Shown: piece after piece, positions 13,972 through 38,188 of the stretch
How positions within the stretch are numbered: position 1 is the stretch's first letter
Layout: the number at the start of each line of letters is the position of its first letter
Assembly: GCA_964558705.1 (NCBI GenBank)
Contig: CAZLFC010000004.1
Location: 1 to 38,404, forward strand
Direction: 5' to 3'
Source of the DNA: an uncultured Dehalococcoidales bacterium
GTDB lineage: Bacteria > Chloroflexota > Dehalococcoidia > Dehalococcoidales > GCA-2688105
Length of the DNA stretch: 38,404 bases
Made by a program: the position numbers and the translations under genes
The notes under the pieces: model-generated
What the model was told of the DNA's origin: nothing
The model's input: only the letters and a program-made list of their open reading frames with translations
Database searches by the model: none

Positions 13972-13995
13972 CAGAGGCCTCCTCTCAGCTACATC

Positions 13996-14911: not shown

Positions 14912-15274
14912 GTGATAGAAATGCAGAAACCAATCGCTTCAGAAACACAAGGTAAAGGTTATCTCGAAGTCACAACAATGATTGAGGAGTTAGAGAAGGA
15001 TTTACCGGAAAAACCGGCTCCAGTAGTAGAAAGAAAAGCACCGGCCGGTAAAGAGGCTATTCTGGAAATTCTGGGTAAAGCCGCTGATGACCCCAAGTTC
15101 CTCGCCCGCTTAGCCGAGAACCCAATCAAGGTACTCGAAGAGTACCATTTAACCGTAGAGGAAAAGGCGGCTCTGGCTACAGGCGACCTGCGCCGCATAG
15201 AAAAATGGGTCGGCAAACTGGACGAGCGGCTGAGCACCTGGATATGGTGCCGTCTCCAGCAGGAGAAATGGTAA
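14912..15274 (+). CDS. Small protein whose C-terminal roughly 60 aa are paralogous to the FdhA C-terminal extension
   Basis: GTG 14912 or ATG 14921 (aggag upstream). The C-terminus is FLARLAENP..LT.EEKAALATGDLRRIEKWVGKLDERL...QEKW. By my manual alignment, about 40/62 residues are identical to the last 62 aa of the 17190..20138 ORF. Confidence 0.6.
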   Translation: MIEMQKPIASETQGKGYLEVTTMIEELEKDLPEKPAPVVERKAPAGKEAILEILGKAADDPKFLARLAENPIKVLEEYHLTVEEKAALATGDLRRIEKWVGKLDERLSTWIWCRLQQEKW

Positions 15275-17193: not shown

Positions 17194-20138
17194 CAATGGC
17201 AACTCAAGAGAAAACCATAACCATCAGTATCGACAATCAGCCGGTAAAGGCGGCACCGGGAGCCAGTATCCTGGAAGCCGCCCAGGCAGCGGGAATCCAT
17301 ATTCCTACCCTGTGTCACCACCCCAAACTCTCAGTGGTAGGTTCCTGCCGGGTCTGTATGGTAGCCGTGGAAGGGATGAAAGGGGTGGTACCATCCTGCG
17401 CCACTCCCATCCGCGAGAGGATGGTAATCAAAACCGATACTCCGGAAGTCCTGGCCGCCAGGAAGATGGCGGTAGAACTGTTATTGTCGACTCACCCCTT
17501 GAATTGTAATGAATGCGATTCCAGCGGGAAGTGCGAGCTTCAGGCACTGGCTACCGAACTGGGCATTGAAACTCCCAGATTCTCCCGCGATGAAGAACGA
17601 CAGCCCATAGACGACAGGCATCCCTTCATTCTCTACGACCCCAATAAGTGCATCCTGTGCAGTCGTTGTGTCCGTGCCTGCCGTGAGATAGCCGTCAATG
17701 ATGTCTTGGGCATCAGCAACAGAGGCGGCGGGTCAATCATCTCCACCTTTTTCGAGGAGTCAATGGTCAGCGTCGGCTGTCTGTCCTGCGGCGAATGCGT
17801 CAGTGTTTGTCCTACCGCCGCCCTGACCGAAAAGCCGGGCTTCTCCATTGAGCCATCCACCGAGGCTAAAATAACCAAGACCACCTGCCCCTGGTGCGGG
17901 GTCGGCTGCACCATCGAACTTCACACCGAAGGCAACAAGGTGGTCAAGGTTACCTCACCACCCGACGCCCCCACCAATAAAGGCAGCCTCTGCGTCAAAG
18001 GTCGCTACGGCTACGAGTTTATCAATCACCCCAGCCGGCTCACCAAGCCGCTGATTAGAGTGAAACCTAAAGATGGCGGGGCGTACCACGAAGAAACCTG
18101 GCAGACCGATTTCCGCGAAGCCAGCTGGGATGAGGCGCTGGAACTGGTAGCCAAACGACTGTCCGAAATCAAGGACAAGTTTGGCAGCGAAAGCCTGGCC
18201 GGAATCAGCTCCGCCAAGTGCACCAATGAAGACAACTATCTGATGCAGAGATTCGTGCGGGAAATAATGGGCAATAACAATATTGACCATTGTGCCCGAC
18301 TTTGCCACGCTTCCACCGTGGTAGGCGCCATCGCCGCCTTTGGCAGCGGCGCCATGAGCAACTCCATTGATGATATTGCTATGGCTGATTCTCTCCTGAT
18401 AATCGGTTCCAATACAACCGAGTGCCATCCGGTTATCGGCAGCGTTGTTAAGCAGTCCGTCAGGTTCAGGGGAACGAAACTTATCGTGGCTGACCCCCGC
18501 CACATCCAGCTCACCGACCACGCCGCCATACACCTGCGTCACAAACCGGGGACCGATGTCGCCCTGCTCAACGGACTGATGCATGTCATCATCAAAGAGG
18601 GTCTGGCCAACGAAACCTTTATTAAAGAGCGCACCGAAGGCTTTGACGAACTAAACCAGGTAGTTGAAAACTACACGCCGGAGGTCGTGGAGAAAATAAG
18701 CGGCGTTGCCCAGGAAGACCTTATCAAAGCCGCCCGCGTATTCGGTCAAGCCGAAAAAGCATGCATTATTTACAGCATGGGCATAACGCAGCATACTACC
18801 GGCACCGACAATGTTAAAAGCGTGGCCAACCTCCTGCTTCTCACCGGCAACATCGGCCGGGAAGGTACCGGCTTCAGCCCGCTACGCGGACAGAATAATG
18901 TCCAGGGGGCTTGCGACCTGGGAGCATTACCGAATGTCCTCCCCGGCTACCAGGCGGTTAACAATCCGGAAAGCAGAGGAAAATTTGAAGCAGCCTGGCA
19001 CTGCCAGCTCGGTGATACTCCGGGAATCACCATGACGGAGATGCTTCCGGCCGCCCACGAAGGCAAGATAAAGGCAATGTACATCGTGGGGGAGAACCCT
19101 CTGCTCAGTGAACCTAACACCGAGCACGCCAGAGAATCGTTGAAAAGGCTGAATTTCCTGGTAGTCCAGGATATCTTCCCCTCGGAAACGGTCTGGCTGG
19201 CTGACGTTGTCCTGCCGGCGGCATGCTTTGCCGAGAAAGAAGGCACCTTCACCAGCACCGACCGGCGCGTCCAGAGAGTGCGGCAAGCGGTCACACCGCC
19301 GGGCGAAGCCCGCGATGACTGGGAGATAACCTGCCAGCTGGCGGAAAAGATGGGACACGACTTCAGCTACACCAGTGCCGAACAGATAATGGATGAAATC
19401 GCTGCTCTGACACCTATCTACGGCGGTGTCCACTATAACCGCCTGGACGGTACCGGCTTGCAGTGGCCCTGCCTTGACGATAACCACCCGGGCACTCCCT
19501 TCCTGCACAAGGACAAGTTCAGCCGTGGACTGGGCAAGTTCCACGCTTTAGAGTACATCCCTCCCGATGAGTCGATTTCTAAAGAGTTTCCCATGGTACT
19601 TACCACCGGACGAGTCCTGGAGCACTGGCACACCGGAACAATGAGTCGGCGCGCCGCTCCATTGCAGGAACTCTACCCGAAAGGTTTAGCCGAAATCCAT
19701 CCCAAGGATGCTGAGCGACTGGGCGTCTGGGAAGGTGAGATGATAACCATCACCTCAGACAGGGGCAAGATAGAAGCCAAGGCTCACATCACGGAAAAAT
19801 CAGCCCCCGGTCTTGTTTTCATGTCCTTCCACTGGCATGAAGCGCCCGCCAATATCCTCACCAACCCGGCGGTTGACCCGGTGGCCAAGATTCCCGAATA
19901 CAAGGTGTGTGCCGTCAAACCGGTGCTCGCGGTGCTTGACAGAGCGATACAGGATAATGCCTTCCTGGCCCAGTTAGCCGAGAACCCCGCGGAGGCGCTC
20001 AAGAGCTATGACCTCACCGCCGAAGAGAAGGCGGCCCTGGCTACCGGTGACATCCGCAGAATAAAGTCATGGGTCGGCGAACTCGACGAGAGAGTGGAGT
20101 CCTGGCTTATTGCCCGGCTGGCACAAGAAAAATGGTAA
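17190..20138 (+). CDS. fdhF: Formate dehydrogenase alpha subunit with a NuoG-like FeS N-terminus, a Mo/W-bisPGD catalytic domain (Cys type) and a roughly 70-aa C-terminal extension
   Basis: The start is set at ATG 17190 (ggaggaggtg RBS, ATGA overlap with the nuoF stop). There is an N-terminal 2Fe-2S plus 4Fe-4S Cys clusters. The active-site region HCARLCHASTV has a TGC Cys codon at 18303..18305 where selenoproteins have TGA. RGQNNVQGACDLG is also present. The extra C-terminal domain spans 19924..20138. Confidence 0.88.
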   Translation: MTMATQEKTITISIDNQPVKAAPGASILEAAQAAGIHIPTLCHHPKLSVVGSCRVCMVAVEGMKGVVPSCATPIRERMVIKTDTPEVLAARKMAVELLLSTHPLNCNECDSSGKCELQALATELGIETPRFSRDEERQPIDDRHPFILYDPNKCILCSRCVRACREIAVNDVLGISNRGGGSIISTFFEESMVSVGCLSCGECVSVCPTAALTEKPGFSIEPSTEAKITKTTCPWCGVGCTIELHTEGNKVVKVTSPPDAPTNKGSLCVKGRYGYEFINHPSRLTKPLIRVKPKDGGAYHEETWQTDFREASWDEALELVAKRLSEIKDKFGSESLAGISSAKCTNEDNYLMQRFVREIMGNNNIDHCARLCHASTVVGAIAAFGSGAMSNSIDDIAMADSLLIIGSNTTECHPVIGSVVKQSVRFRGTKLIVADPRHIQLTDHAAIHLRHKPGTDVALLNGLMHVIIKEGLANETFIKERTEGFDELNQVVENYTPEVVEKISGVAQEDLIKAARVFGQAEKACIIYSMGITQHTTGTDNVKSVANLLLLTGNIGREGTGFSPLRGQNNVQGACDLGALPNVLPGYQAVNNPESRGKFEAAWHCQLGDTPGITMTEMLPAAHEGKIKAMYIVGENPLLSEPNTEHARESLKRLNFLVVQDIFPSETVWLADVVLPAACFAEKEGTFTSTDRRVQRVRQAVTPPGEARDDWEITCQLAEKMGHDFSYTSAEQIMDEIAALTPIYGGVHYNRLDGTGLQWPCLDDNHPGTPFLHKDKFSRGLGKFHALEYIPPDESISKEFPMVLTTGRVLEHWHTGTMSRRAAPLQELYPKGLAEIHPKDAERLGVWEGEMITITSDRGKIEAKAHITEKSAPGLVFMSFHWHEAPANILTNPAVDPVAKIPEYKVCAVKPVLAVLDRAIQDNAFLAQLAENPAEALKSYDLTAEEKAALATGDIRRIKSWVGELDERVESWLIARLAQEKW

Positions 20139-20250: not shown

Positions 20251-20292
20251 AATTTAGTGTAAAATTATTTGACAATTTAGTGTAAAGTTATT
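20251..20292 (+). promoter_or_regulatory. Two 19-bp direct repeats bracketing a TTGACA box upstream of the rpoN-like gene
   Basis: aatttagtgtaaaattatt (20251..20269) and aatttagtgtaaagttatt (20274..20292) match at 18/19. TTGACA at 20269..20274 lies between them. No convincing -10 was found at 17-bp spacing. Confidence 0.3.
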
Positions 20293-20310
20293 ACTCTAGT
20301 TAGTGATACG

Positions 20311-21432
20311 ATGTTAGACAGAGTACCCTCATTGAAGATGAACCAGACCCAGTCCATGCAAATGCGGCAGGAGCAAAGACAAATCCTCCGCATGGAACAA
20401 GCCAACCTGCTGGAAATGCCCGAGGACGACTTTCACAAGCTTATCAGCGAGATAGAGCGTGAGCCCCTTTTTCAGAAGTTATACGGTAAGGAAAAACTAA
20501 TCCGCTACCAGAGACTGCCCAGAACCGATATGTCCTCCAGTTTCTACGCAATCAAAGAAGAGGTGGTAGCCGATAAAGGTTCGCTGGATGTTGAATCCCT
20601 TCTGCAGAATAAGGAGCACATTGTCCGGCTAATACAGCAGCTGGGCATGGAGACATTCAATAAGTATTTTTTGTTCCCGGAATCAGGGATGACTCCTGAA
20701 GAAATCGCTAGAGAATGCGACCTGGACATACCGGAGGTCCAGAAGATAAATAGCCTTATTGATGATTTCTCGGTCAGGAGTGAATTCTATCATCCGTCGA
20801 ATATTACCTCAGACAGCATCCGCTACTCCAAAATCGCCTCGGTAGATAAAGATGACAAGGGATTTATTATCGGCTATTTTTCAGCGCCTCTCGCCCGGGG
20901 TCGTTATGCCATTGATTATGAAAAATTTGAAGAGTTAAAGACGGCTGGTAAACTCGCTGACACTGAAATCAAGGAAGCCAGGCAGCTATTCAAAAAACTG
21001 GAACTGATTAATAGCCGCAAGGACACCATAACTCAAATCCTGCAAAATATCATTGACAAGCAGGCACTATACCTAGAGTCCGGCAACTCTAAGTCACTCT
21101 TACCTCTCAGCCAAAAGGAACTGGCTAAAAATATCGAGGTCGCTCCCAGTTCAATAAGTCGTGCTATTAGAGGCAAAAGTATCGAAACTCCCTGGGGTAA
21201 AGAAGTCCCTCTGAAAAACTTCTTCCCTAGGCCCAAGCGATTTAGAATGGAACTGCTCAGGCAACTGCTGGAAACCGACCAAGAGCTTTCCTCAGACGAG
21301 GCAATCCGCAACAAACTCCAGGAAAAATTTGGCGTAGCAATCTCACGTCGTTCGGTAGCCAACCTGAGAAAAGAGCTTAAATTCCCGGCGGTTCATAGAA
21401 GCCACCGTACCGCTGGAGGTAAATTAAAATGA
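20311..21432 (+). CDS. rpoN: Short, divergent sigma-54 (RpoN)-like factor
   Basis: Gln/Leu-rich region-I-like N-terminus (MNQTQSMQMRQEQRQILRMEQANLLEM). C-terminal HTH (QKELAKNIEVAPSSISRAIRGKSIETPWGKEVPLKNFF) and RpoN-box-like ISRRSVANLRKELKFP. The start is ATG 20311 or 20338. The stop overlaps the next ATG (ATGA). Confidence 0.7.
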   Translation: MLDRVPSLKMNQTQSMQMRQEQRQILRMEQANLLEMPEDDFHKLISEIEREPLFQKLYGKEKLIRYQRLPRTDMSSSFYAIKEEVVADKGSLDVESLLQNKEHIVRLIQQLGMETFNKYFLFPESGMTPEEIARECDLDIPEVQKINSLIDDFSVRSEFYHPSNITSDSIRYSKIASVDKDDKGFIIGYFSAPLARGRYAIDYEKFEELKTAGKLADTEIKEARQLFKKLELINSRKDTITQILQNIIDKQALYLESGNSKSLLPLSQKELAKNIEVAPSSISRAIRGKSIETPWGKEVPLKNFFPRPKRFRMELLRQLLETDQELSSDEAIRNKLQEKFGVAISRRSVANLRKELKFPAVHRSHRTAGGKLK

Positions 21433-23384
21433 GCATTGTCTACACCGAGAGAGAAAAATGTACCGGGTGCCTTGCCTGTGTTCGTAACTGCCCAGCCAAG
21501 GCAATCAGAATAAGAGAGGGCAAGGCTGAGGTAATAAAGGAGCGCTGTATTGACTGCGGCAACTGTGTTCAGATATGCATGGCTAAAGCGAAACACCTAG
21601 AGAGCGACATTGGATTGGTCTGGCAGCTATTGGGACAGCAGCAGCCGATAATCGCGATGCTATCCGCCCCCTTCCCCGCCGCTTTCCCTGAAATTCGACC
21701 GGGGCAGCTGGTAGCCGCTTTGAAAAAACTGGGTTTTAGCGAGATTATGGAGGATTCCTTCGGGGCTGAACTGATCTGCGGTGAATATGCCCGTCTTTTT
21801 AAGGAAAAAGCTGATAAAAATATTATCTCATCTACCTGCCCGGCGGTAGTGTCATACATTGAGAGATTTCACCCCCAGCTACTCAATAATCTAGCACCCA
21901 TTGTCTCACCTATGATAGCCATGGGTAGAGTGATTAAGCATCGTTATAATCCACAGGCTAAGGTAGTCTTCATTAGCCCTTGCGTAGCCAAGATAGCCGA
22001 GGCTAAAGATGAGAAGGTTGCCGGCATAGTGGATGCAGTACTGACCTTTGCCGAAATTAAAGAAATGTTAGCGGCTAAAGAGATTGCCCTTGCATCTCAG
22101 GACGAAGAGCAACTCACGGGTCCCAAACCAAACCTGGGGCGTCTGGTCGCCATATCGGGTGGCTTACTCAAGGCAGCCAATCTCTCCGACGATATTCTAG
22201 CCAATGAAATTATAAATGCCTGCGGTCATGAATACACACCTCATATCCTTCGCGAGTTTTCCGAAGGCAACATCACTGCCAAACTCATCACCATGTGTTT
22301 TTGTGAAGGTTGTATTGATGGTCCGGTTATTGATAACAACCTGAGCGTCTTTAAACGAAGAGAGATAATCAGCAATTACACCTTGAGCCAGGCAGACCCT
22401 GTTCAAACCGAGAAGGACGTTCAGGTATATGCTGACATTGACCTCAGCCGTAAATTTACCAATAGAAGTGTCGACCTACCTACTCCCAGCGAAGAAGATA
22501 TTCAAAGGATTTTAGAGGAGATTGGCAAGGTAGACCCCAGCTTCCATATGAACTGCGGCGCCTGCGGCTACGGCGGCTGCCGAGAACTGGCTATTGCCGT
22601 CTGCCAGGGTCTGGCTGAGGTTAATATGTGCTGGCCATATGTACTAAATAAGTTAAGAGCCACCCAAGAAGAACTAATCCAGGCTGAGAAGCTGACCTCG
22701 CTGGGTCAACTGGCCGCCTCCATCGCCCACGAGGTCAATAACCCCCTGGCCGGCGTCCTTATCTATACCCAGTTGATGGCTAAAAAAATAAACGACGATA
22801 AGCTCGCCAAAGAGGTCGCCCTCGACTACCTGTCCAAGATGGACTCCGAACTTACCCGCAGCACCAGACTAATCCGTAACCTCCTCGACTTCGCCCGGCA
22901 GTCTACGCCTACCCTCAGAGAAGTGAATGTCAACGAGGTCATCACCCGAGCTATAGAACTGGCCGCCCACTCGGCTGAACTGGGTAACGTCCAGATGATA
23001 AAGGAGCTCGACCCTGCCCTGCCCAGGCTTATGGCCGACTTCGACCAGCTCCAGCAGGTCTGCACCAACCTCATACTGAACGCCATCCAGGCAATGCCGG
23101 AAGGAGGTATATTGACCCTCCGCACCTCAACCCCACCCGATAATGACAGCCAGCTCAAGATTGAGGTACAGGATACCGGCCTCGGCATCTCCCCGGAGAA
23201 CATGCGCCGGCTGTTCACTCCCTTCTTTACTACCAAGAAGAAAGGCAAGGGCGTAGGCCTCGGTCTGGCAGTGGCCTATGGAATTGTCCAGCGCCACAAA
23301 GGTAGAATAGAAGTTCAGAGCAGGGAAGGAGAGGGTACCACCTTCATCATCTATTTGCCGCTGCGTTATGAAGAAAAAAGATAA
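21429..23384 (+). CDS. Sensor histidine kinase with 2x[4Fe-4S] ferredoxin, an [FeFe]-hydrogenase-like H-domain, a Cx2Cx4Cx16C FeS motif, then HisKA and HATPase
   Basis: Ferredoxin motifs are CTGCLACVRNCP and CIDCGNCVQIC. The Fe_hyd_lg_C-like core is (SAPFPAAF...LGFSEIMEDSFGAEL...SSTCPAVVSYIERFHPQLL...ISPCVAKIAEA...VDAVLTFAEI...MCFCEGCIDGP). NCGACGYGGCRELAIAVCQGLAEVNMC lies at 22554..22631. The H-box is AASIAHEVNNPL, and the ATPase has G-boxes. Confidence 0.8.
   Translation: MSIVYTEREKCTGCLACVRNCPAKAIRIREGKAEVIKERCIDCGNCVQICMAKAKHLESDIGLVWQLLGQQQPIIAMLSAPFPAAFPEIRPGQLVAALKKLGFSEIMEDSFGAELICGEYARLFKEKADKNIISSTCPAVVSYIERFHPQLLNNLAPIVSPMIAMGRVIKHRYNPQAKVVFISPCVAKIAEAKDEKVAGIVDAVLTFAEIKEMLAAKEIALASQDEEQLTGPKPNLGRLVAISGGLLKAANLSDDILANEIINACGHEYTPHILREFSEGNITAKLITMCFCEGCIDGPVIDNNLSVFKRREIISNYTLSQADPVQTEKDVQVYADIDLSRKFTNRSVDLPTPSEEDIQRILEEIGKVDPSFHMNCGACGYGGCRELAIAVCQGLAEVNMCWPYVLNKLRATQEELIQAEKLTSLGQLAASIAHEVNNPLAGVLIYTQLMAKKINDDKLAKEVALDYLSKMDSELTRSTRLIRNLLDFARQSTPTLREVNVNEVITRAIELAAHSAELGNVQMIKELDPALPRLMADFDQLQQVCTNLILNAIQAMPEGGILTLRTSTPPDNDSQLKIEVQDTGLGISPENMRRLFTPFFTTKKKGKGVGLGLAVAYGIVQRHKGRIEVQSREGEGTTFIIYLPLRYEEKR
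22674..23311. repeat. Copy A of a 638-bp perfect direct repeat (DHp plus most of the CA domain of the hydrogenase-like HK)
   Basis: Line-by-line comparison shows 22674..23311 is identical to 23960..24597 (offset 1286 bp). Similarity continues with mismatches to about 23370/24656. Confidence 0.9.
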
Positions 23385-23416
23385 GACGACAATCAGCTAA
23401 TTAAGCTAAGGTGTTA

Positions 23417-24679
23417 ATGGAACAGTCTATAACAATTAAACCAACCCTAAAAAACACCCTGCAACGCTGGAAAGAAATTGTGGTAGCCAAAGCTAACGAA
23501 TGGGCACAGCGAAGCGACACCAGAGGCATACGAAGCCCTCATTTCTGGATAATCACGGTTTTAATAGCCTTCGGCGCGCTGAATTACTATCTGGACCAGA
23601 CTCCCCTGATTAACCTGCCACTGTTTAACCACAGCTTTTTCACCAGTGTCCACGACGTACATCGGACATTATTCTTCATTCCCATAATCTACGCTGCTCT
23701 GGTATTCAGGGTACGGGGAAGCCTGATTGCTTCACTCGCCTTCCTCTGCGTGGTGCTACCACGCGCTTTGCTATTTTCCCCTTACCCCGACCCGTTACTT
23801 AGACCTATTCTATTTGTCATCTTTGCCGCCATTATCAGTACACTTATGGCGTCACACCTTAATCAAGTCGAAAAGGAAAGAAGCGATCGTGTCAAGCTGA
23901 GCGAAGCTTACCAGAAACTTAGCGAATATCACCAGCGCCTGAAAGAAAGCCAGGAACAGCTAATCCAGGCTGAGAAGCTGACCTCGCTGGGTCAACTGGC
24001 CGCCTCCATCGCCCACGAGGTCAATAACCCCCTGGCCGGCGTCCTTATCTATACCCAGTTGATGGCTAAAAAAATAAACGACGATAAGCTCGCCAAAGAG
24101 GTCGCCCTCGACTACCTGTCCAAGATGGACTCCGAACTTACCCGCAGCACCAGACTAATCCGTAACCTCCTCGACTTCGCCCGGCAGTCTACGCCTACCC
24201 TCAGAGAAGTGAATGTCAACGAGGTCATCACCCGAGCTATAGAACTGGCCGCCCACTCGGCTGAACTGGGTAACGTCCAGATGATAAAGGAGCTCGACCC
24301 TGCCCTGCCCAGGCTTATGGCCGACTTCGACCAGCTCCAGCAGGTCTGCACCAACCTCATACTGAACGCCATCCAGGCAATGCCGGAAGGAGGTATATTG
24401 ACCCTCCGCACCTCAACCCCACCCGATAATGACAGCCAGCTCAAGATTGAGGTACAGGATACCGGCCTCGGCATCTCCCCGGAGAACATGCGCCGGCTGT
24501 TCACTCCCTTCTTTACTACCAAGAAGAAAGGCAAGGGCGTAGGCCTCGGTCTGGCAGTGGCCTATGGAATTGTCCAGCGCCACAAAGGTAGAATAGAGGT
24601 ACAAAGCAGGGAAGGAGAGGGTACCACCTTCATTATCTATTTGCCGCTGCGTTATGAAAAACATGAAGAAAAAGATTAA
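23417..24679 (+). CDS. Membrane sensor histidine kinase (DUF4118-like 4-TM sensor, HisKA, HATPase)
   Basis: ATG 23417 (taaggtg RBS); the track start is GTG 23411. The hydrophobic N-terminus is homologous to the N-terminus of the 12019..13971 kinase. The transmitter is identical to that of the preceding kinase. Confidence 0.8.
   Translation: MEQSITIKPTLKNTLQRWKEIVVAKANEWAQRSDTRGIRSPHFWIITVLIAFGALNYYLDQTPLINLPLFNHSFFTSVHDVHRTLFFIPIIYAALVFRVRGSLIASLAFLCVVLPRALLFSPYPDPLLRPILFVIFAAIISTLMASHLNQVEKERSDRVKLSEAYQKLSEYHQRLKESQEQLIQAEKLTSLGQLAASIAHEVNNPLAGVLIYTQLMAKKINDDKLAKEVALDYLSKMDSELTRSTRLIRNLLDFARQSTPTLREVNVNEVITRAIELAAHSAELGNVQMIKELDPALPRLMADFDQLQQVCTNLILNAIQAMPEGGILTLRTSTPPDNDSQLKIEVQDTGLGISPENMRRLFTPFFTTKKKGKGVGLGLAVAYGIVQRHKGRIEVQSREGEGTTFIIYLPLRYEKHEEKD
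23960..24597. repeat. Copy B of the 638-bp perfect direct repeat
   Basis: See copy A. The antisense track ORFs 22826..23248 and 24112..24534 translate identically, which is consistent. Confidence 0.9.
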
Positions 24680-26006
24680 AATTCTTGTCGTTGATGATGA
24701 AGCCATCATCCGCGAGTCACTCCGTGACTGGCTAAGCGACACCGGATACGAAGTCCTTGTCGCCGAGAACGGCCTCCAGGGTCTGGGAATTATTGAGAAG
24801 GAGAGGCCGGGTATTGCCATTGTTGATCTGGTAATGCCTGGAATGGACGGGATTGAATTACTGAAGAGAGCCAAGGAAATTTCTCCTAACACCGACATAA
24901 TCATCATCACTGCCTACGCCAGTATCCCCACAGCTATTGCCGCCATAAGGTCCGGCGCCTATGACTACATTGAGAAGCCCTTCTGCCCGGAAAAGGTAGA
25001 GCTATTAATTGAGAAACTGATGGAGCATCAACAACTCATCGAGGAGAATATTTCCCTGCACCAGAAACTGGAGGAGCGTTACCGGTTCGAAAATATCATT
25101 GCCAAGAGTCCCAGGATGCAGCAGATAATCGAGGTGATTAAAGTCGTCGCCAAGAGTAATGCCACGGTGTTGATTACCGGCGAAAGCGGCACCGGGAAGG
25201 AACTGGTCGCACGAGCCGTCCACTCCCAGAGCTACCGCAAGGATAAGACATTTGTTGCCGTTAGTTGTGCTGCCCTGCCCGAAACCCTCCTCGAAAGCGA
25301 GCTGTTCGGGCATGAGAGAGGCTCTTTTACCGGTGCTCACGTCCAACGGAAAGGAAAATTTGAAGCTGCCAACCGGGGCAGTCTCTTCCTGGATGAGGTT
25401 GGCGAGATGAGTGCCAATATTCAGGTTCACCTGCTCAGGGTACTGGAAGAAAAAGAGTTCACCAGGGTTGGCGGGAATGAGCTAATCAAGGTCGATGTCA
25501 GAGTCATCTCAGCGACCAATAAAGATATGAAACAGGCGATAGCCAACGGGCAATTCCGTGAAGACCTTTACTACCGACTTAATGTGGTTACTATCGAATT
25601 GCCTCCCTTGAGAGAGCGAAAAGAAGACATTCCTCTCTTAGCCGAGCATTTCCTGAAAAAGTTCGCCGTGGAAAATCAAAAAGAGATTACCGGCTTTTCT
25701 CCTAAGGCTAATGATTTTCTGCTGAACTATGATTGGCCGGGTAACGTCCGGGAACTGGAAAATGCTATTGAAAGGGCAGTTATCCTGGCCAAAGATAATT
25801 ATATTGAGGTTGCCGACCTGCCCCAGGAAAGCCTGACAAAGACTCACTCGTCTGTACCCGGTGAAAGCCTTGAAAAGATTGAGAAAAATCACATCCAGAA
25901 CACACTCAAAGAAACCGACGGCAACTTAAGTAAAGCCGCCAAAATCCTGGGGATTTCCCGGGTAACTCTTTACAATAAAATTAAATTATATGATTTGAGC
26001 AAATAG
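24654..26006 (+). CDS. NtrC-family sigma-54-dependent response regulator (REC, AAA+ and Fis-type HTH)
   Basis: REC (ILVVDDE..VDLVMPGMDG..KPF), Walker A GESGTGKE and a GAFTGA-type loop (GSFTGA). Also ESELFGHE, R-finger and sensor II regions, and a C-terminal HTH (AAKILGISRVTLYNKI). It overlaps the HK stop. An alternative ATG lies at 24663. Confidence 0.9.
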   Translation: MKNMKKKIKILVVDDEAIIRESLRDWLSDTGYEVLVAENGLQGLGIIEKERPGIAIVDLVMPGMDGIELLKRAKEISPNTDIIIITAYASIPTAIAAIRSGAYDYIEKPFCPEKVELLIEKLMEHQQLIEENISLHQKLEERYRFENIIAKSPRMQQIIEVIKVVAKSNATVLITGESGTGKELVARAVHSQSYRKDKTFVAVSCAALPETLLESELFGHERGSFTGAHVQRKGKFEAANRGSLFLDEVGEMSANIQVHLLRVLEEKEFTRVGGNELIKVDVRVISATNKDMKQAIANGQFREDLYYRLNVVTIELPPLRERKEDIPLLAEHFLKKFAVENQKEITGFSPKANDFLLNYDWPGNVRELENAIERAVILAKDNYIEVADLPQESLTKTHSSVPGESLEKIEKNHIQNTLKETDGNLSKAAKILGISRVTLYNKIKLYDLSK

Positions 26007-26016
26007 ATAAGATGAT

Positions 26017-26040
26017 AACTGATTAAATCTTTTACAATCA
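26017..26040 (+). promoter_or_regulatory. Candidate upstream activator site (imperfect dyad TGATT-N11-AATCA), copy 1
   Basis: aactgattaaatcttttacaatca starts 83 nt upstream of the -24 GG. It matches 28358..28381 at 21/24, and that element sits at 82 nt from its own -24 GG. Confidence 0.35.
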
Positions 26041-26063
26041 AGTCTCCATTAAAGCAGAAACTC

Positions 26064-26098
26064 AGGCTATCCTGGCAATTCAGGATAGCCTTCTCTTT
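26064..26098 (+). terminator. Hairpin plus T-tract after the ntrC-like gene, abutting the sigma-54 promoter
   Basis: aggctatcctg-gcaatt-caggatagcct is an 11-bp perfect stem followed by tctctttt. Its arms are conserved in the paralogous hairpin at 28403..28432. Confidence 0.55.
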
Positions 26099-26114
26099 TG
26101 GCAAGATAATTGCT
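26099..26114 (+). promoter_or_regulatory. Sigma-54 (-24/-12) promoter P1
   Basis: TGGCAAGATAATTGCT has GG at 26100-26101 and GC at 26112-26113 (exact GG-N10-GC, TGGCA-N6-TTGC). It lies 26 nt upstream of ATG 26139, with ggaggtg between them. Confidence 0.75.
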
Positions 26115-26138
26115 CTCAAACAGCGCGGAGGTGATAAG

Positions 26139-28334
26139 ATGAAACCTATATTGATAGTAGAAGATGAGGATATCATGAGAGAGTCCCTGCAGGACTGGCT
26201 GACTGACGTCGGCTATAAAGTGGAGACCGCCGAGGAGGGAGAGAAAGCCCTGGAAGCCATCGATGAGAAGGACTTCGGCATTGTTATCCTCGACCTGAAG
26301 TTACCGGGTAAAGACGGCCTCGAGGTGCTTAGAGAAGCTAAGGCGAAAAGACCCCAGCTTAAGGGTATCATTATTACCGCTTACCCTTCAGTCCAAACAG
26401 CTATAGACGCCATGAAGGAGGGAGCCGTAGATTACCTGCCCAAGCCCTTCGACCTCAATGAACTGGAAAAATTGGTCCGGGAGACCCTGGGGCCAATCCA
26501 GGTGGAGATAAAACCAAAGAAGGCTGCCGGAAAAGCCAAGGCTGAACCTGCCGAAATCGAGGAAGTTATCGATGAGGTAACCGGGAAGGTACACCTGCCT
26601 CCCTGTCAGATAGCCTGTCCCATCGGAGAGCCGATTCAGCGCACCAATGCGATGATTTCACACCTGCCCCTTGACACCGAGAAGGCTATCCCTCAGATAA
26701 CAAAAATAGGCGATATAATTTATGAGAAGAATCCTCTATTCACAATATGCAGCTATATCTGCGGGCTTTGTGAAAAAGAATGCAACTACAAAGACCACAC
26801 GGGAGCGATAAGAAGAAAGATGCTTAAACGGTTCCTCACCGATTACTACCTGCCCCATCTGGAAACCAAGCCCCCCTTCCCCCTCCCTACCAGGGAAAAA
26901 GTTGCCGTAATTGGCGGTGGCCCCGCGGGGTTAATGTCCGCCTATATGTTAAGTAAAGACGGCTACCGGGTGACTATCCTGGAAAAAAGTCTCGAATTAG
27001 GCGGAGCCCTGAGATACATTCCTCAATACCGCCTTCCGAAGGATATTGTCGATTCCACTTTAAACAACCTGGTAAGAATTGCCCATATTGATGTCAGATT
27101 CGGAGTAAGCATGGGCAGTGGCGAGAAAACCCTGGATGACCTCAGGAATGAAGGTTGCCAAGCCGTATTCATCGCCACCGGCACTCCAGCTCCCCGACCG
27201 CTCACCTTTGAAGGCAAACCGGTACCGGGAGCCGACCTGGAAGGAGTTGCGTTCGGGTTATATCTTCTCATCGACGTAAACCAGAGCAAGGTCTCCCATC
27301 AGCTATTACGCCGGCTTTTCGGTGATAAGAGAGTAATCGTGGTAGGCGGCGGCAATGTAGCCTTCGATGCCGCCAGAACCGCCCGGCGGCTTGGCGGAGA
27401 TGTTACTCTTGTCTGCCTCGAAAATGAGAATAAGTCCTCCAAGGATGGAATTCCTGCCGATGTTGAGGAGATAAAAGGTGCCCGTGAAGAAGGCATCAAA
27501 ATATGCTACAGCCGGGGTGTAGAAGAGATAATCGGCAAGGATGGCAAGTTCACCAAAATAAAATGTCCCCGCTGCACCTCAGTTTTCGACGAAAAAGGAT
27601 TCAATCCTAAATTTGACCGAAGTGATTTTATATACCTTGAGGGCGACGTGTTATTGACAACCATAGGACAGGGTCCGGAGCATTCGTTCTTCCAGCAGGA
27701 AGGCTTACTTAATGAGCGAGGCAGATCTGATACCGACCCGCTTACCCTTATGAGCAATCGCCAAGAAGGAGTCTTCATCGGTGGTGATGTGAGGCGACTG
27801 GGCTTTGCTGCCGAAGCGATGAGAGACGGCATAGTAGCCGCCGAGTCTATAGACCGTTACCTGAAGGGTGAGGAACTCAAGGAAGGCCGGGAAAAGCAGT
27901 TTGAAAGCGCGGCTATCCCCACGCTCATGGAGTACAAGCCTCAACCTGAAGCAGAATGGGTACTGCTGGAAGAGAGGCTTAACTTTGAACTGTTTGAAAA
28001 AGGCTTCACCCTGGAGGAAGCAATAGAAGAAGCGACAAGATGCCTGTATTGCGGCCCGTGCAAGAGCTGCAAAGCATGCGTCGTCCTCGAGCTGCAACCT
28101 GAGATACCCAAAATTGAAGTCAATCAGGATATATGCAGTGGCTGTGGCATCTGTGTAGGCTTATGCAGCTATGATGCCATCCAGCTAAGGGCAGATAACG
28201 GCAAGGCAGTAGCCACCATAGACGATATTAAATGCAAGCGATGCGGAGTATGCAGTGCCGCCTGCCCGTCTAACGCCATCGGCATTGGGCACGCCACTTC
28301 TGAGAACATCATAACTGAAATCCCCGACTGGTAA
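26139..28334 (+). CDS. Receiver domain fused to a GltD/NfnB/SfrB-like FeS-flavoprotein oxidoreductase with a C-terminal 2x[4Fe-4S] ferredoxin domain
   Basis: REC spans aa 1-120 (VEDE..LDLKLPGKDG..ITAY..KPF). An FeS N-domain follows (PPCQIACP, CSYICGLCEKEC). There are two Rossmann motifs (VAVIGGGPAGL, VIVVGGGNVAFDAA). The C-terminus has CLYCGPCKSCKAC, CSGCGICVGLC and CKRCGVCSAACP. Confidence 0.8.
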   Translation: MKPILIVEDEDIMRESLQDWLTDVGYKVETAEEGEKALEAIDEKDFGIVILDLKLPGKDGLEVLREAKAKRPQLKGIIITAYPSVQTAIDAMKEGAVDYLPKPFDLNELEKLVRETLGPIQVEIKPKKAAGKAKAEPAEIEEVIDEVTGKVHLPPCQIACPIGEPIQRTNAMISHLPLDTEKAIPQITKIGDIIYEKNPLFTICSYICGLCEKECNYKDHTGAIRRKMLKRFLTDYYLPHLETKPPFPLPTREKVAVIGGGPAGLMSAYMLSKDGYRVTILEKSLELGGALRYIPQYRLPKDIVDSTLNNLVRIAHIDVRFGVSMGSGEKTLDDLRNEGCQAVFIATGTPAPRPLTFEGKPVPGADLEGVAFGLYLLIDVNQSKVSHQLLRRLFGDKRVIVVGGGNVAFDAARTARRLGGDVTLVCLENENKSSKDGIPADVEEIKGAREEGIKICYSRGVEEIIGKDGKFTKIKCPRCTSVFDEKGFNPKFDRSDFIYLEGDVLLTTIGQGPEHSFFQQEGLLNERGRSDTDPLTLMSNRQEGVFIGGDVRRLGFAAEAMRDGIVAAESIDRYLKGEELKEGREKQFESAAIPTLMEYKPQPEAEWVLLEERLNFELFEKGFTLEEAIEEATRCLYCGPCKSCKACVVLELQPEIPKIEVNQDICSGCGICVGLCSYDAIQLRADNGKAVATIDDIKCKRCGVCSAACPSNAIGIGHATSENIITEIPDW
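26142..26580. repeat. Copy A of a 439-bp near-identical direct repeat (REC domain plus linker)
   Basis: 26142..26531 is identical to 28534..28923 (390 bp, offset 2392). There are 2 mismatches (26532 and 26557) before divergence at 26581. Confidence 0.9.
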
Positions 28335-28357
28335 AAAATGTAAAGAATATAAACAGC

Positions 28358-28381
28358 AACTGATTAAATAGTTTACAACCA
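28358..28381 (+). promoter_or_regulatory. Candidate upstream activator site, copy 2
   Basis: aactgattaaatagtttacaacca lies 82 nt upstream of the -24 GG of P2. Confidence 0.35.
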
Positions 28382-28402
28382 GGCTACTTTAAACCAAAGA
28401 CC

Positions 28403-28438
28403 AAGGCTATCCTGAATCGTCAGGATAGCCTTTTCTTA
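28403..28438 (+). terminator. Hairpin plus T-tract after the REC-GltD gene, abutting sigma-54 promoter P2
   Basis: aaggctatcctga-atcg-tcaggatagcctt is a 13-bp stem followed by ttctta. Confidence 0.55.
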
Positions 28439-28454
28439 TGGCAAGAAAATTGCC
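28439..28454 (+). promoter_or_regulatory. Sigma-54 (-24/-12) promoter P2
   Basis: TGGCAAGAAAATTGCC has GG at 28440-28441 and GC at 28452-28453. It lies 27 nt upstream of ATG 28480, the same geometry as P1. Confidence 0.75.
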
Positions 28455-28479
28455 TTTAAACAGTGTGGAGGTGATAAAA

Positions 28480-29571
28480 ATGGAAAAGCTAGCAGTCTTA
28501 AAGGAAGATAAAGTAAAAGGAGGTGAAAAAGTGAAACCTATATTGATAGTAGAAGATGAGGATATCATGAGAGAGTCCCTGCAGGACTGGCTGACTGACG
28601 TCGGCTATAAAGTGGAGACCGCCGAGGAGGGAGAGAAAGCCCTGGAAGCCATCGATGAGAAGGACTTCGGCATTGTTATCCTCGACCTGAAGTTACCGGG
28701 TAAAGACGGCCTCGAGGTGCTTAGAGAAGCTAAGGCGAAAAGACCCCAGCTTAAGGGTATCATTATTACCGCTTACCCTTCAGTCCAAACAGCTATAGAC
28801 GCCATGAAGGAGGGAGCCGTAGATTACCTGCCCAAGCCCTTCGACCTCAATGAACTGGAAAAATTGGTCCGGGAGACCCTGGGGCCAATCCAGGTGGAGA
28901 TAAAACCAAAGAAGGCTGCCGGAGAAGCCAAGGCTGAACCTGCCGAAACCGAGGAAGTTATCGATGAGGTAAAGGTTGAAGAGATTATAGCTATAGCTCC
29001 CGAGGAAGTCCCGGACCATCTGGCGCAGGGCAAGACCCAATGTGACGCCGGCCAATATCTGAAAGCTCTAAAGGAGTTTGAGGCTGTCCTCAACGCTGCC
29101 CCGGGTAGCATCGAAGCCCGAGTCTGGATACGAAAGGCAAAAGAAGCCCTAGCCAAGCCAGAGGCTGAAGCCGTAGCTGAAGGAGAGGAAGCCGCCGCAG
29201 AAGGCAAAATCAAGGAGTGCGTTTGGATGAAGATGGGTATGGTAGCCTACCGCATCTGCACCAACGACTATGACTGCACCACCTGCGATTTCGACCAGAT
29301 GATGCAGGAGAAGATGGCCAGTGGTGATGCCCCGGAACTTGAAGCTGCGCTGGAGAAATTCAAGGCGCTACCCGGTAACCAGAGGCTTTGCCGCTATGCC
29401 CTTAAGGGTGATGTATCACACCGAATTTGCAGCCGCCTGTTCCAGTGCAACGCCTGCGAATTTGGTCAAATGATGGAGGATGCTCTCCAAAGAAAGCTGG
29501 ATAAGCTGGAAGCACGCCGAGCTGCTCTGCTCAAAAAAGAGCAAAAACAAAAAGCTGAAACCGAAGCATAA
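28480..29571 (+). CDS. Response regulator: REC, TPR-like linker, twin C-x12-C-x5-C-x2-C modules and a coiled-coil tail
   Basis: The start is set at ATG 28480 (ggaggtg RBS, matching P1 geometry). An alternative GTG lies at 28531 (aaggaggtg RBS). The track ATG 28438 lies inside the -24 element. The REC is identical to that of the 26139 ORF. The C-terminus has CVWMKMGMVAYRICTNDYDCTTCDFDQMMQE and CRYALKGDVSHRICSRLFQCNACEFGQMMED. Confidence 0.75.
   Translation: MEKLAVLKEDKVKGGEKVKPILIVEDEDIMRESLQDWLTDVGYKVETAEEGEKALEAIDEKDFGIVILDLKLPGKDGLEVLREAKAKRPQLKGIIITAYPSVQTAIDAMKEGAVDYLPKPFDLNELEKLVRETLGPIQVEIKPKKAAGEAKAEPAETEEVIDEVKVEEIIAIAPEEVPDHLAQGKTQCDAGQYLKALKEFEAVLNAAPGSIEARVWIRKAKEALAKPEAEAVAEGEEAAAEGKIKECVWMKMGMVAYRICTNDYDCTTCDFDQMMQEKMASGDAPELEAALEKFKALPGNQRLCRYALKGDVSHRICSRLFQCNACEFGQMMEDALQRKLDKLEARRAALLKKEQKQKAETEA
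28534..28972. repeat. Copy B of the 439-bp REC repeat
   Basis: See copy A. Confidence 0.9.
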
Positions 29572-29601
29572 TTAAAGTACCTTGAGACTGCTGAAATATA
29601 G

Positions 29602-29644
29602 TTAGAGGGTACGCCTGACAACCGTAAAAAAGCGTACCCTCTAA
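29602..29644 (+). terminator. 13-bp perfect hairpin after the REC-Cys gene (no clear T-tract)
   Basis: ttagagggtacgc-N17-gcgtaccctctaa. Confidence 0.4.
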
Positions 29645-29704
29645 TTAGAAAGGCTGAAAAAGGTAACCAAGGTAGATTTTCCAGAGATGCACTAGGAGGA
29701 AAAA

Positions 29705-30202
29705 ATGGACACCCAAAAAAGGAGGATTCTGCTGGTAGAAGATGAAACCGTGATGCGCGAAGGCATGCGTGACTGGCTCATGGAGAATGGTTACGATGTC
29801 GAGAGCGCTGAGACCGGAGAAGAAGCCTTACAGAGAATCAGGAAGGAAGACTTTGGCATTATCGTCCTTGATTTAAAGTTACTGGGCATTGATGGACTGC
29901 AAGTATTCGAAAAAGCCAGAGAGCTTAAATCTGAAGCCAAAGGGATAATCATTACCGCCCATCCTTCGCCAGAAACGCAGGAAAAGGCACAAAAGCTGGG
30001 AGTCCTCGACTACCTGGTAAAACCTTTCAAGATTGAAAATCTGGAAAAGATAATCAGAGAGGTGCTGGGAGAACCAGAGAGAAAACTAACGGGCAAAGAA
30101 TATCTCTGGCTGGAACTTAATAACTCTTCTTATCGACTCTGCACCAAAAACTATAAATATGACTCATATGCTTTCACGCAGGGGACCTATAAGATAGATT
30201 AA
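29705..30202 (+). CDS. Stand-alone receiver protein with a short Cys-depleted remnant of the C-x12-C-x5-C-x2-C module
   Basis: aggagg RBS. The REC is paralogous to the two upstream RECs (MREGMRDWLMENGY, LDLKL, ITAH, KPF). The tail KEYLWLELNNSSYRLCTKNYKYDSYAFTQ aligns to KECVWMKMGMVAYRICTNDYDCTTCDFDQ, with 3 of 4 Cys replaced by Tyr. Confidence 0.75.
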   Translation: MDTQKRRILLVEDETVMREGMRDWLMENGYDVESAETGEEALQRIRKEDFGIIVLDLKLLGIDGLQVFEKARELKSEAKGIIITAHPSPETQEKAQKLGVLDYLVKPFKIENLEKIIREVLGEPERKLTGKEYLWLELNNSSYRLCTKNYKYDSYAFTQGTYKID

Positions 30203-33369: not shown

Positions 33370-33759
33370 TCACCTCTTTGGGTTGAGAACACGAACAACA
33401 GCTTCTCTCAGGCTGGTCACGCTCAGGGGTTTAATCAGGTAATCGACAGCACCCATCCCGAGAGCTCTGTCCCGCTGTGGCACTCCGGCTGAGGCAGTGA
33501 ATACAATTACGGGAATTGCTGATAGCTCCAGCTCACTTTTCATCGCCCGCAGGACGCTCCAACCATCACGCCCGGGTAACCGCAAATCCAGCAGCATCAG
33601 AGCAATATGATGTTCCCTGGCTAATCTCAAGCCAGTATCACCATCGCTGGCCTGAAGAACCCGGTAACCCTCCAGCTCAAGTACCCGGGAGACAAAAGTC
33701 AGGACTTCAGCCTCATCTTCTATAGTAAGGATCGTCTTTACGCCACACGACCTTGCCAT
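33370..33759 (-). CDS. Single-domain response regulator (CheY-like)
   Basis: ILTIEDE, LLDLRLPGRDG, VFTAS and KPL; 129 aa. Confidence 0.85.
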   Translation of the reverse strand: MARSCGVKTILTIEDEAEVLTFVSRVLELEGYRVLQASDGDTGLRLAREHHIALMLLDLRLPGRDGWSVLRAMKSELELSAIPVIVFTASAGVPQRDRALGMGAVDYLIKPLSVTSLREAVVRVLNPKR

Positions 33760-38172: not shown

Positions 38173-38188
38173 TGGCATCCAGGTTGCC
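38173..38188 (+). promoter_or_regulatory. Sigma-54 (-24/-12) promoter P3
   Basis: TGGCATCCAGGTTGCC has GG at 38174-38175 and GC at 38186-38187 (exact GG-N10-GC). It lies 37 nt upstream of GTG 38224. Confidence 0.55.

Follow-up and report, generated by a model that had tools for sequence, protein, structure and literature searches.

A candidate sigma-54 signalling island of Dehalococcoidia with a hydrogenase-like histidine kinase and receiver-tagged redox proteins

We describe an island in the genome of an uncultured Dehalococcoidales bacterium (assembly GCA_964558705.1, contig CAZLFC010000004.1) that is probably a Dehalococcoidia-specific two-component regulon carrying its own compact sigma-54. 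The window that we analysed is the whole stretch of 38 404 nt (positions 1-38,404, forward strand), and the island occupies 20311-30202. A sigma-54-like protein, two histidine kinases (HK1 and HK2) and an NtrC-type enhancer-binding protein (EBP) would together switch on genes whose products themselves begin with a receiver (REC) domain. The regulatory wiring (sigma-70-type promoter, operon, terminator, enhancer, -24/-12 elements and receiver-tagged targets) is well supported by comparative footprints; phosphotransfer, enhancer binding, output function and the signal are what we infer beyond it.

Domains were called by Pfam and NCBIfam scans of the open reading frames (ORFs) of the island. The matches on each ORF agree with the genes and domains named by a first-pass annotation, which had been made from the window's letters alone, and its reading as a sigma-54 signalling island is borne out by the Sigma54_DBD and Sigma54_activat matches and by the footprinted -24/-12 promoters. 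There are seven genes, all on the + strand:

20311-21432 (+): sigma-54-like protein, 373 aa; Sigma54_DBD, 81.6 bits
21429-23384 (+): HK1; two Fer4, Fe_hyd_lg_C (162 bits), FeS (PF04060), HisKA, HATPase_c
23411-24679 (+): HK2; hydrophobic multi-pass N-terminus, then HisKA and HATPase_c
24654-26006 (+): NtrC-type EBP; Response_reg, Sigma54_activat (248 bits), HTH_8
26139-28334 (+): REC-GltD-like flavoprotein; Response_reg, Fer4_20, Pyr_redox_2, C-terminal Fer4 (2x[4Fe-4S])
28480-29571 (+; ORF listed from 28438): REC-TPR-twin-4Cys protein; Response_reg, TPR, Cys-rich tail without annotation
29705-30202 (+): RR3; Response_reg and a short truncated, Cys-poor tail

The sigma-54-like and HK1 genes overlap in an ATGA at 21429-21432 and the HK2 and EBP genes at 24654-24679, both as first annotated.

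The island recurs in related genomes. For the sigma-54-like protein we count 661 homologues. With few exceptions they are about 365 aa long, identities among the best 120 are 68-78%, and every named source belongs to Dehalococcoidales or Dehalococcoidia or is a subsurface metagenome. When one genome was scanned for each species, 53 loci were obtained (cited below by L numbers), the sigma gene having served as the query; the label is Dehalococcoidia for nearly all of them, and two are labelled otherwise, probably through binning. The metagenome loci L001-L004 also carry the gene order. A tblastn map of the loci gives a constant core, sigma-54-like gene, kinase, NtrC-type activator and REC-Cys protein, an order that recurs across the 53 species loci.

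Around this core there is variation. The sensor of the kinase is hydrogenase-like in most loci and of the membrane type in nine (L006, L013, L020, L025, L027, L031, L033, L042, L053); HK1 and HK2 types occur together in L011, as in the window. REC-GltD-like orthologues are found in L011, L032, L033 and L038, and a short REC plus half-Cys protein of the RR3 type in six loci. Eight loci have a set of NuoE-like, NuoF-like and REC-NuoG-N-terminal-like genes running without a gap after the REC-Cys gene, and Pfam confirmed this set in L021, a locus from a complete chromosome. Judged by this map, the REC-twin-4Cys protein is the universal target, and REC-GltD and the membrane kinase are lineage-specific add-ons. 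Two loci hold decayed systems: L032 (2457-2770) lacks the kinase and retains only pieces of the activator, and in L045 (1154-1429) a small ferredoxin-like ORF stands in the kinase's place.

The regulatory elements of the island are as follows:

20251-20296 (+): promoter region of the regulatory operon; TTGACA at 20269-20274 and a 23-bp tandem repeat (AATTTAGTGTAAAATTATTTGAC / AATTTAGTGTAAAGTTATTACTC)
26000-26036 (no strand): candidate enhancer UAS1; right half kept (CTTTTACA), left half degenerate
26064-26098 (+; hairpin 26064-26091): intrinsic terminator 1; 12-bp stem and T-run, abutting the -24 element
26099-26113 (+): sigma-54 promoter P1, TGGCAAGATAATTGC
28340-28376 (no strand): candidate enhancer UAS2; intact 37-bp palindrome GTAAAGAA...TAGTTTAC
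28403-28438 (+; hairpin 28403-28432): intrinsic terminator 2; 13-bp stem and T-run
28439-28453 (+): sigma-54 promoter P2, TGGCAAGAAAATTGC, equal to the family consensus

The annotation had proposed two cassettes of a terminator hairpin plus TGGCA-N6-TTGC, and both are present, at 26064-26113 and 28403-28453; P1 and P2 lie directly 3′ of the two strongest terminator-like hairpins of the region. TGGCA-N6-TTGC has four matches in the window against 0.43 expected, a count reached by none of 100 shuffles. In 753 kb of locus DNA there are 59 matches, about 45 of them 43-150 nt ahead of the first REC gene that follows the activator, and elsewhere matches occur in about the number expected by chance. 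The proposed -24/-12 promoters are thus the same element in the same place in about 45 loci, a phylogenetic footprint whose consensus is again TGGCAAGAAAATTGC. Where an exact match is lacking, in four loci, a variant that differs by one base occupies this position (TGGCGAGAAAATTGC, TGGCCAATGAATTGC). In L007, L033, L038 and L046 the first REC gene is preceded by a tandem pair of -24/-12 elements spaced 58-123 nt apart, and in L028, L037, L041 and L047 the hairpin-adjacent copy is degenerate and the downstream copy intact.

A hairpin with a T-run folds at the promoter-adjacent position in 37 of the 45 loci, and in 31 of these 37 the stem runs for 9 bp or more without interruption; the remaining loci have their hairpin further upstream. 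The stem arms vary by clade yet pair (GGCTATCCTG/CAGGATAGCC, GGCCATCC/GGATGGCC, GGCTGTCCAGG/CCTGGACAGCC, GCTACCCGG/TCGGGTAGC, GGGTCATCCCAA/TTGGGATGACC). Because the stems change on both sides with pairing kept, we read the hairpin as a structural element, a terminator insulating the regulatory operon from its targets. These assessments rest on folds of each sequence and a tabulation of stems. The structure that RNAalifold produced from a MAFFT alignment of this region was meaningless, as loop indels shift the 3′ arms out of register.

Overlapping the stop codon of the EBP gene in 32 of 45 loci (34 of 45 by a looser search pattern) is a palindrome of fixed length, 36-37 bp, of the form GTAAAGAAAnTAGACA-N5-TGAnTAAnTTCTTTAC, also written GTAAAGAAA-N19-TTTCTTTAC and nearly perfect in L050. 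It is our candidate binding site for the activator.

The regulatory operon itself has a different kind of promoter. In the majority of related loci the start codon of the sigma-54-like gene is preceded, at a distance of about 12 nt, by TTGACA-N17/18-TAAAAT, and the operon is therefore presumably read by the housekeeping sigma factor. A consensus sigma-70 scan upstream of the sigma gene of the window found nothing convincing, the TTGACA/TAAAAT pair being visible by locus comparison only, and the exact promoter in the window is uncertain because the 23-bp duplication disturbs the spacing. A further candidate, TGGCAWAGCCTTTGC, recurs in five loci some 4.5 kb ahead of the sigma gene; we rejected it as coding conservation, since the sequence is conserved and no gene start lies downstream.

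In the 373-aa sigma-54-like protein, the C-terminal 150-200 residues (extra-long helix, helix-turn-helix and RpoN box) are clearly sigma-54 on profile and motif evidence. Sigma54_DBD (PF04552, the helix-turn-helix and RpoN box) has a cut-off of 22.8 bits, far below the score obtained. Across 24 homologues hardly any variation is seen in an RpoN-box-like SRRSVANLR or in the motif PSSISRAIRGKS, and the Gln/Leu-rich N-terminus (QSLQMRQELRQILRMEQANLLEM) is nearly invariant among homologues as well. A profile search of the PDB matched sigma-54 chains over residues ~166-362 (Aquifex aeolicus and Escherichia coli structures, E 1.6e-12), with a lone weak match to another protein (8tac, E 0.3); hhalign against E. 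coli RpoN aligned only residues 214-365, the C-terminal third. When the AF2 model was compared with the PDB by Foldseek, the top 24 matches were all sigma-54 chains (E down to 4.5e-8 over ~420 columns, at low TM scores of 0.2-0.28). A CBD-like fold may be compatible with these alignments, and the order of secondary structures in the model is the one expected of sigma-54 structures.

The protein that the annotation called 'RpoN-like' is far from canonical: the rpoN equivalog TIGR02395 gives 88.6 bits, below its cut-off of 277.35, no CBD is recognised, and Sigma54_AID (PF00309) matches the N-termini of three family members weakly (E 0.0056-0.58, 10.5-16.9 bits against a cut-off of 23.8). By these comparisons we class it as a divergent, compact member of the sigma-54 family without region II, with putative binding to core polymerase. 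That it works as a sigma-54 is argued from its company, since an activator of the GAFTGA type and a GG-N10-GC promoter always go with it; the genomic match to the sigma-54 mode consists of TGGCA-N6-TTGC in about 45 loci and an adjacent EBP with GSFTGA or GAFTGA. Divergent from the sigma-54-like gene and adjoining it, L006 (1053-2402, -) encodes a 449-aa protein with Sigma54_DBD at 36 bits and an unannotated C-terminal extension, a second and still more aberrant sigma-54-DBD protein.

By its motif order, HK1 is a histidine kinase with a HydS-type [FeFe]-hydrogenase-like sensor. Two [4Fe-4S] motifs are followed by the H-domain, Cx2Cx4Cx16C and then directly the DHp and CA domains; Pfam finds no PAS domain in HK1, so the last Cys of the last cluster motif is about 24 residues from HisKA. 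Against solved [FeFe] hydrogenases, C137 and C185 align to C300 and C355 of CpI and PCxxKxxE is kept, the proton-relay Cys (CpI C299) is replaced by Thr or Asn in the HK1 family, and the Met353 position is Ser or Gly. The putative H-cluster cysteines, PCxxKxxE, the eight N-terminal ferredoxin cysteines and Cx2Cx4Cx16C are present in 39-41 of 41 homologues; the eight N-terminal cysteines and Cys 376, 379, 384 and 401 are conserved in 40-41 of the 41. HydS proteins, the putative sensory hydrogenases (TmHydS, TamHydS), are defined by a C-terminal Cx2Cx4Cx16C, a missing C299 and a replaced Met353 (PMC8163306), HydDB lists a class 'C1, histidine kinase-linked (putative)' (PMC5037454), and a signalling role of sensory [FeFe] hydrogenases was in 2026 still "proposed, but not tested" (PMC13104023). 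Database names of the HK1 orthologues are generic. Both kinases have HisKA at 48-49 bits and HATPase_c at 98-99 bits, and AtoS, among the best NCBIfam matches of their transmitters, gives 227-230 bits against a cut-off of 646. An antisense TGGCAGTGATGTTGC inside the HK1 coding region (22267-22281, -) is kept in L011 (11956, -) and probably reflects coding conservation, not a promoter.

Signalling domains of the island are duplicated almost exactly. The transmitters of the two kinases (22664-23384 and 23950-24670) are identical at 708 of 721 nt (98%) and 238 of 246 residues, from which HK1 and HK2 would address the same partners. The receivers of REC-GltD and REC-Cys (26127-26589 and 28519-28981) are identical at 452 of 463 nt with a 392-nt core at 100%, and as proteins they do not differ (100%); the promoter cassettes upstream are 78-88% identical to each other. 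The same pattern holds elsewhere. Output receivers within one genome are identical at 100% in the window, 91% in L011, 85-90% in L038, 83% in L033 and 81% in L032, compared with 72% for the median between loci. HK1 and HK2 transmitters reach 98% within the window and 95% within L011; from one of these two genomes to the other the value is 76%. Similarity within genomes above that between species points to gene conversion, or repeated recent duplication, keeping the signalling domains matched.

The EBP has Response_reg (PF00072) at 103 bits, PF00158 at 248 bits and PF02954 at 60 bits, a Walker A GESGTGKE and an intact GSFTGA loop; its best NCBIfam model is AtoC, at 512 bits against a cut-off of 714. 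As the annotation had noticed, the alpha-1 signature [MI]RE[SG][LM][QR]DWLxxxGY is shared by all four island receivers (EBP, REC-GltD, REC-Cys and RR3), and within the window it is theirs exclusively, being absent from two unrelated receivers (13996-14661 and 33370-33759). The four are 40-54% identical mutually and 25-36% identical to the other two. The work of Skerker in 2008 and of Capra in 2010 on kinase-regulator specificity reportedly makes alpha-1 the main docking surface. The output receivers are probably phosphorylated by the same kinases, because they share this docking signature with the activator, and the matched domains support, short of proof, a shared phospho-network.

The flavoprotein part of REC-GltD has Fer4_20 and Pyr_redox_2 with two nucleotide-binding folds, and its best PDB matches are NfnA 9n5u (E 3e-53), 9bov_A, StnA 8oh5 and NfnB 5jca. 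We assign it no subfamily because NF009410 gives 326, below its cut-off of 516. For REC-Cys, the ORF start at 28438 cannot be real because it overlaps P2; orthologue comparison makes ATG 28480 or GTG 28531 the likely start, each with its own GGAGGTG ribosome-binding site. The Cys-rich tail, which we call twin-4Cys, consists of two C-x12-C-x5-C-x2-C repeats with conserved Trp, Gly, Arg and Gln, and no Pfam or NCBIfam model matches it. A word-indexed homologue search with the 111-aa domain gave fragments only, so an exhaustive profile search was needed, which gave 564 representative clusters. In 75 full-length proteins from this search the Cys domain is followed by a GcvH-like domain 40 times and preceded by a receiver 15 times; a TPR-Cys-histidine kinase and a NuoG-N-terminal-Cys-GcvH fusion occur once each. 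Conservation reaches at least 90% for each of the eight cysteines over this diverse set of 75. The AF2 model of the domain (predicted local distance difference test score, pLDDT, of 47) was too poor for a fold search. Metal binding and docking to flavin/iron-sulfur complexes are the probable role of the domain. RR3 ends in a shortened, Cys-poor vestige of it (EYLWLELNNSSYRLCTKNYKYDSYAFTQ...); orthologues of ~204 aa in six other loci keep C-x5-C-x2-C.

Outside Dehalococcoidia the domain has similar company. In L060 a hydrogenase-like kinase (sensor 44% identical), a peptidase M54 gene and an EBP gene precede a Cys-GcvH gene; in L064 an EBP gene, a hairpin and TGGCATGGAAGTTGC do so; in L062 a divergent PAS-kinase/EBP pair stands beside Cys-GcvH, HdrC-like, HdrB-like and 1487-aa GltD/HdrA-like genes; in L059 CheX and a receiver gene are followed by Cys-GcvH; and in L063 a NuoF-like gene adjoins the NuoG-Cys-GcvH fusion. 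A -24/-12 element lies just 5′ of the Cys-domain gene in L059, L060, L062 (with a GTGC variant at -12) and L064, and no sigma gene was found near the Cys-domain genes of these four. Contexts in L059, L061, L063 and L064 are short contigs of limited information. From these contexts the twin-4Cys protein emerges as a recurrent first gene of sigma-54/EBP-controlled redox operons, and, on this comparison, what is specific to Dehalococcoidia is the linked compact sigma gene and the receiver fusions. The peptidase M54 (archaemetzincin-like) gene lies between or beside the kinase and activator genes in both L060 (4720-5268) and L062 (2254-2856). In L021 (19210-21068) and L018 (19218-21112) a LuxR-type regulator and a TPR-twin-4Cys-sensor kinase follow the sigma-54-dependent operon immediately, which shows the Cys domain in a further role, as the input domain of a kinase.

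The mechanism that we propose, and hold to be probable as stated above, is as follows. A housekeeping-type promoter would transcribe the genes of the sigma-54-like protein, HK1, HK2 and the EBP, with the terminator blocking read-through into the targets. HK1 would sense H2, or reduction of its iron-sulfur chain, through the HydS-type module, whose last [4Fe-4S] motif runs into the DHp helix; HK2 would add a membrane-derived input, and both inputs would feed the same receivers through virtually identical transmitters. The phosphorylated activator would bind the 36-37-bp palindrome ~60-100 nt upstream of the -24 element and spend ATP on opening the sigma-54 holoenzyme at TGGCA-N6-TTGC. The products would be the REC-TPR-twin-4Cys protein and, in this genome, also the REC-GltD/NfnB-like flavoprotein. 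Their receivers would be phosphorylated by the same kinases, so that transcription and activity are gated together in a feed-forward-like manner. With the twin-4Cys protein as a probable metal-binding adaptor for NuoEF-, Hdr- or GltD-type complexes, the output would control the flow of reductant.

A bolder version, which we consider quite unlikely as a whole, makes the sigma factor private: it would have evolved together with a single activator and a single class of promoter, as the sigma-54 counterpart of an extracytoplasmic function (ECF) module. Its regulon would be receiver-tagged parts of flavin-based electron-bifurcating enzymes (REC-GltD-like, REC-NuoG-like and the REC-twin-4Cys adaptor), whose assembly or activity a hydrogenase-like redox kinase would switch by phosphorylation, with gene conversion of receivers and transmitters keeping them matched to the kinases. 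If this is true, enzymes of energy metabolism are direct substrates of a two-component system.

Several observations weigh against the proposed mechanism. No Sigma54_CBD is found by Pfam in the whole protein or in residues 60-258, even at E up to 10, the matches to Region I are weak, and the AF2 model of the sigma-54-like protein is mediocre (pLDDT 63). Since the palindrome extends with its left half into coding sequence, coding constraint may account for part of its conservation. In HK1 the invariant pair C292/C295 is spaced CxxC, not CxxxC, and was left unaligned by HMMER; for TamHydS, signalling through the C-terminal cluster has been doubted (PMC13104023); and since a membrane sensor replaces the hydrogenase-like one in nine loci, the module is not tied to H2. 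We put H2 as the signal to HK1 a little short of an even chance, and another redox cue at about the same. Without the [2Fe] subcluster the module would be a Nar1-like iron-sulfur sensor of ferredoxin/NAD(P)H poise, O2, CO or NO, the rest of the pathway being the same. We give this reading a lesser, though real, chance. The CxxC spacing and the swappable sensor speak for it, as do inter-motif stretches ~44 residues shorter in all than in CpI (48 and 107 against 55 and 144), the lack of maturase genes among the Pfam-listed genes of the 20-kb neighbourhoods, and targets that are NAD(P)H/ferredoxin-type modules, not hydrogenases. [FeFe] hydrogenases do occur in the class (Hym of Dehalococcoides), which counts against it. 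So does the match of all four putative H-cluster Cys positions, PCxxKxxE, the lost proton-relay Cys and Cx2Cx4Cx16C to characterised, H-cluster-binding HydS (PMC8163306).

The sigma-54-like gene might instead be the lineage's general sigma-54, with activators and promoters elsewhere too, its linkage being positional and the regulon not private. We regard this as rather unlikely. It would explain an intergenic TGGCA-N6-TTGC at 38173 before a secreted protease-like ORF and the homologous HK/EBP/Cys-domain modules that work without a linked sigma gene in other lineages, and it accords with a survey finding sigma-54 and activators in only some Chloroflexi (Francke et al. 2011, PMC3162934). Against it, the sigma gene overlaps HK1 by the ATGA and stands directly 5′ of the kinase gene in nearly all loci with neighbouring sequence (loci found through the sigma gene), and motif matches outside REC promoters number ~12 in 746 kb of flanks, with ~8 expected by chance. 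Nor need the receiver-fused proteins act as effectors: as phosphate sinks or competitors they would drain the kinases once induced, giving negative feedback (adaptation) and not coherent feed-forward. REC-TPR-Cys lacks a recognisable enzymatic or DNA-binding output, RR3 has kept its receiver intact beside a degenerate tail, and up to four near-identical receivers in some loci (L038) are expected of sinks. We nevertheless hold this unlikely, given the conservation of the eight tail cysteines over diverse proteins and the fusion of receivers to large redox modules (GltD-like, NuoG-like), whose conservation implies function. The two-kinase, two-cassette layout could finally be an artefact if the near-identical transmitter and receiver segments were assembly chimeras; runs of 392 and 640 nt at 100% identity within one locus are unusual for an assembly. 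This is very improbable: each copy has unique flanks, the reading frames are intact, and L011, an independent genome, also has the HK1-HK2 tandem and REC-GltD, with copies that have diverged (95% and 91%) yet are closer than orthologues.

Several known systems resemble the proposed regulon in part. HoxBC-HoxJ-HoxA (Cupriavidus necator) and HupUV-HupT-HupR (Rhodobacter capsulatus) likewise combine a hydrogenase-derived sensor, a histidine kinase and an NtrC-family regulator of reductant metabolism. Their sensors are H2-sensing regulatory [NiFe] hydrogenases (HydDB group 2b), and HoxA acts at sigma-54 promoters. In the island, by contrast, the sensor is [FeFe]-like and fused into the kinase polypeptide, the sigma factor is in the same operon, and the targets are receiver-tagged flavin/iron-sulfur proteins, not hydrogenase structural genes. 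Sigma-54 paralogues linked to activators include RpoN1-4 of Rhodobacter sphaeroides and rpoN2 of rhizobia and Xanthomonas, all full-length canonical RpoN. Like the island gene they sit in the cluster that they serve, beside a dedicated EBP; unlike them, the island protein has 373 aa, no region II and no sequence-recognisable CBD, and scores far below the rpoN equivalog cut-off. AtoS/AtoC, ZraS/ZraR and NtrB/NtrC, the best NCBIfam matches for transmitters and activator, have the same activator architecture of REC, AAA+ and Fis-type HTH, but the island scores fall below the equivalog cut-offs and the sensor domains and targets are unrelated.

The GltD-like modules most similar to the flavoprotein part of REC-GltD are those of Bfu-family StnABC (8oh5), NfnABC-type enzymes (9n5u, 9bov) and NfnAB (5jca). 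Bfu-family NAD(P)H/ferredoxin enzymes partner with NuoEF-like subunits, and NuoE- and NuoF-like genes also accompany the island and related loci. The known enzymes are without an N-terminal receiver, whereas here the GltD-like module and, in other loci, the NuoG-N-terminal-like module have one. With HydS (TmHydS, TamHydS) HK1 shares the N-terminal 2x[4Fe-4S], the H-domain without proton-relay Cys, the change of Met353 to Ser or Gly, and Cx2Cx4Cx16C (PMC8163306); it differs in lacking the PAS domain of HydS group C (M2f), in a motif leading directly into HisKA/HATPase_c and in a last putative H-cluster pair spaced CxxC. For HydS no signalling partner or output has been demonstrated (PMC13104023), whereas in the HK1 locus the whole downstream path can be read.

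Literature searches found no published description of this system, in line with the annotation, which had named no characterised system of this composition. All of its component types are known, and the [NiFe]-based two-component systems that sense H2 are functionally a close precedent. The proposal of sensory [FeFe] hydrogenases is more than a decade old, and here a HydS-type module is fused directly to a kinase. Since the locus shows activator, sigma factor, enhancer, promoter and targets alike, purified parts would allow a test of whether autophosphorylation and transcription depend on H2 or redox state. For the question of which parts of sigma-54 are essential, a minimal, lineage-specific one from a subsurface class that is largely uncultured would be useful, and the unnamed twin-4Cys domain is a recurrent sigma-54 target in several lineages. 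The fusion of receivers to NAD(P)H/ferredoxin modules suggests post-translational two-component control of electron-bifurcation-type enzymes, of which we know of no characterised example.

Upstream of the island is a true NuoE/NuoF/formate dehydrogenase (Fdh) set, whose Fdh-alpha scores 853 bits against a TIGR01591 cut-off of 666; a hairpin and the island's own promoter region part this operon from the island. The annotation had taken the neighbouring operon as a clue to function. Its genes are confirmed and redox enzymes do recur around related islands (Fdh-NuoEF, Hdr/GltD-like, NuoEF-like), but the Fdh neighbour itself is not conserved, other loci having HdrBC-like and 1110-aa GltD/HdrA-like genes in its position, and therefore Fdh does not define the function of the island. 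The remaining DNA of the window is ordinary chromosome (TrpRS, RtcB, RecN and cobalamin transport genes), and an Rfam scan of the window found no known RNA.

Near the end of the window a fourth TGGCA-N6-TTGC (TGGCATCCAGGTTGC) is intergenic at 38173-38187 (+), ~45 nt ahead of a GTG start; the ORF that begins there encodes a signal peptide and a subtilase-like N-terminus and runs off the window end. The site could mark an extra sigma-54 target outside the island, and hints that the sigma factor may serve more than this regulon. A small ORF before nuoE (14912-15274, +) and the C-terminal tail of Fdh-alpha (19923-20135, +) share 61% identity over 71 aa, both being weak PF14407 matches. A LuxR-type response regulator and a GAF/PAS HisKA_3 kinase (12019-14661, -) are kept upstream of the island in L001, L003 and L019. 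Over its membrane domain HK2 shares 28-36% identity with the N-terminus of this kinase family, which suggests domain shuffling between the two kinase systems.

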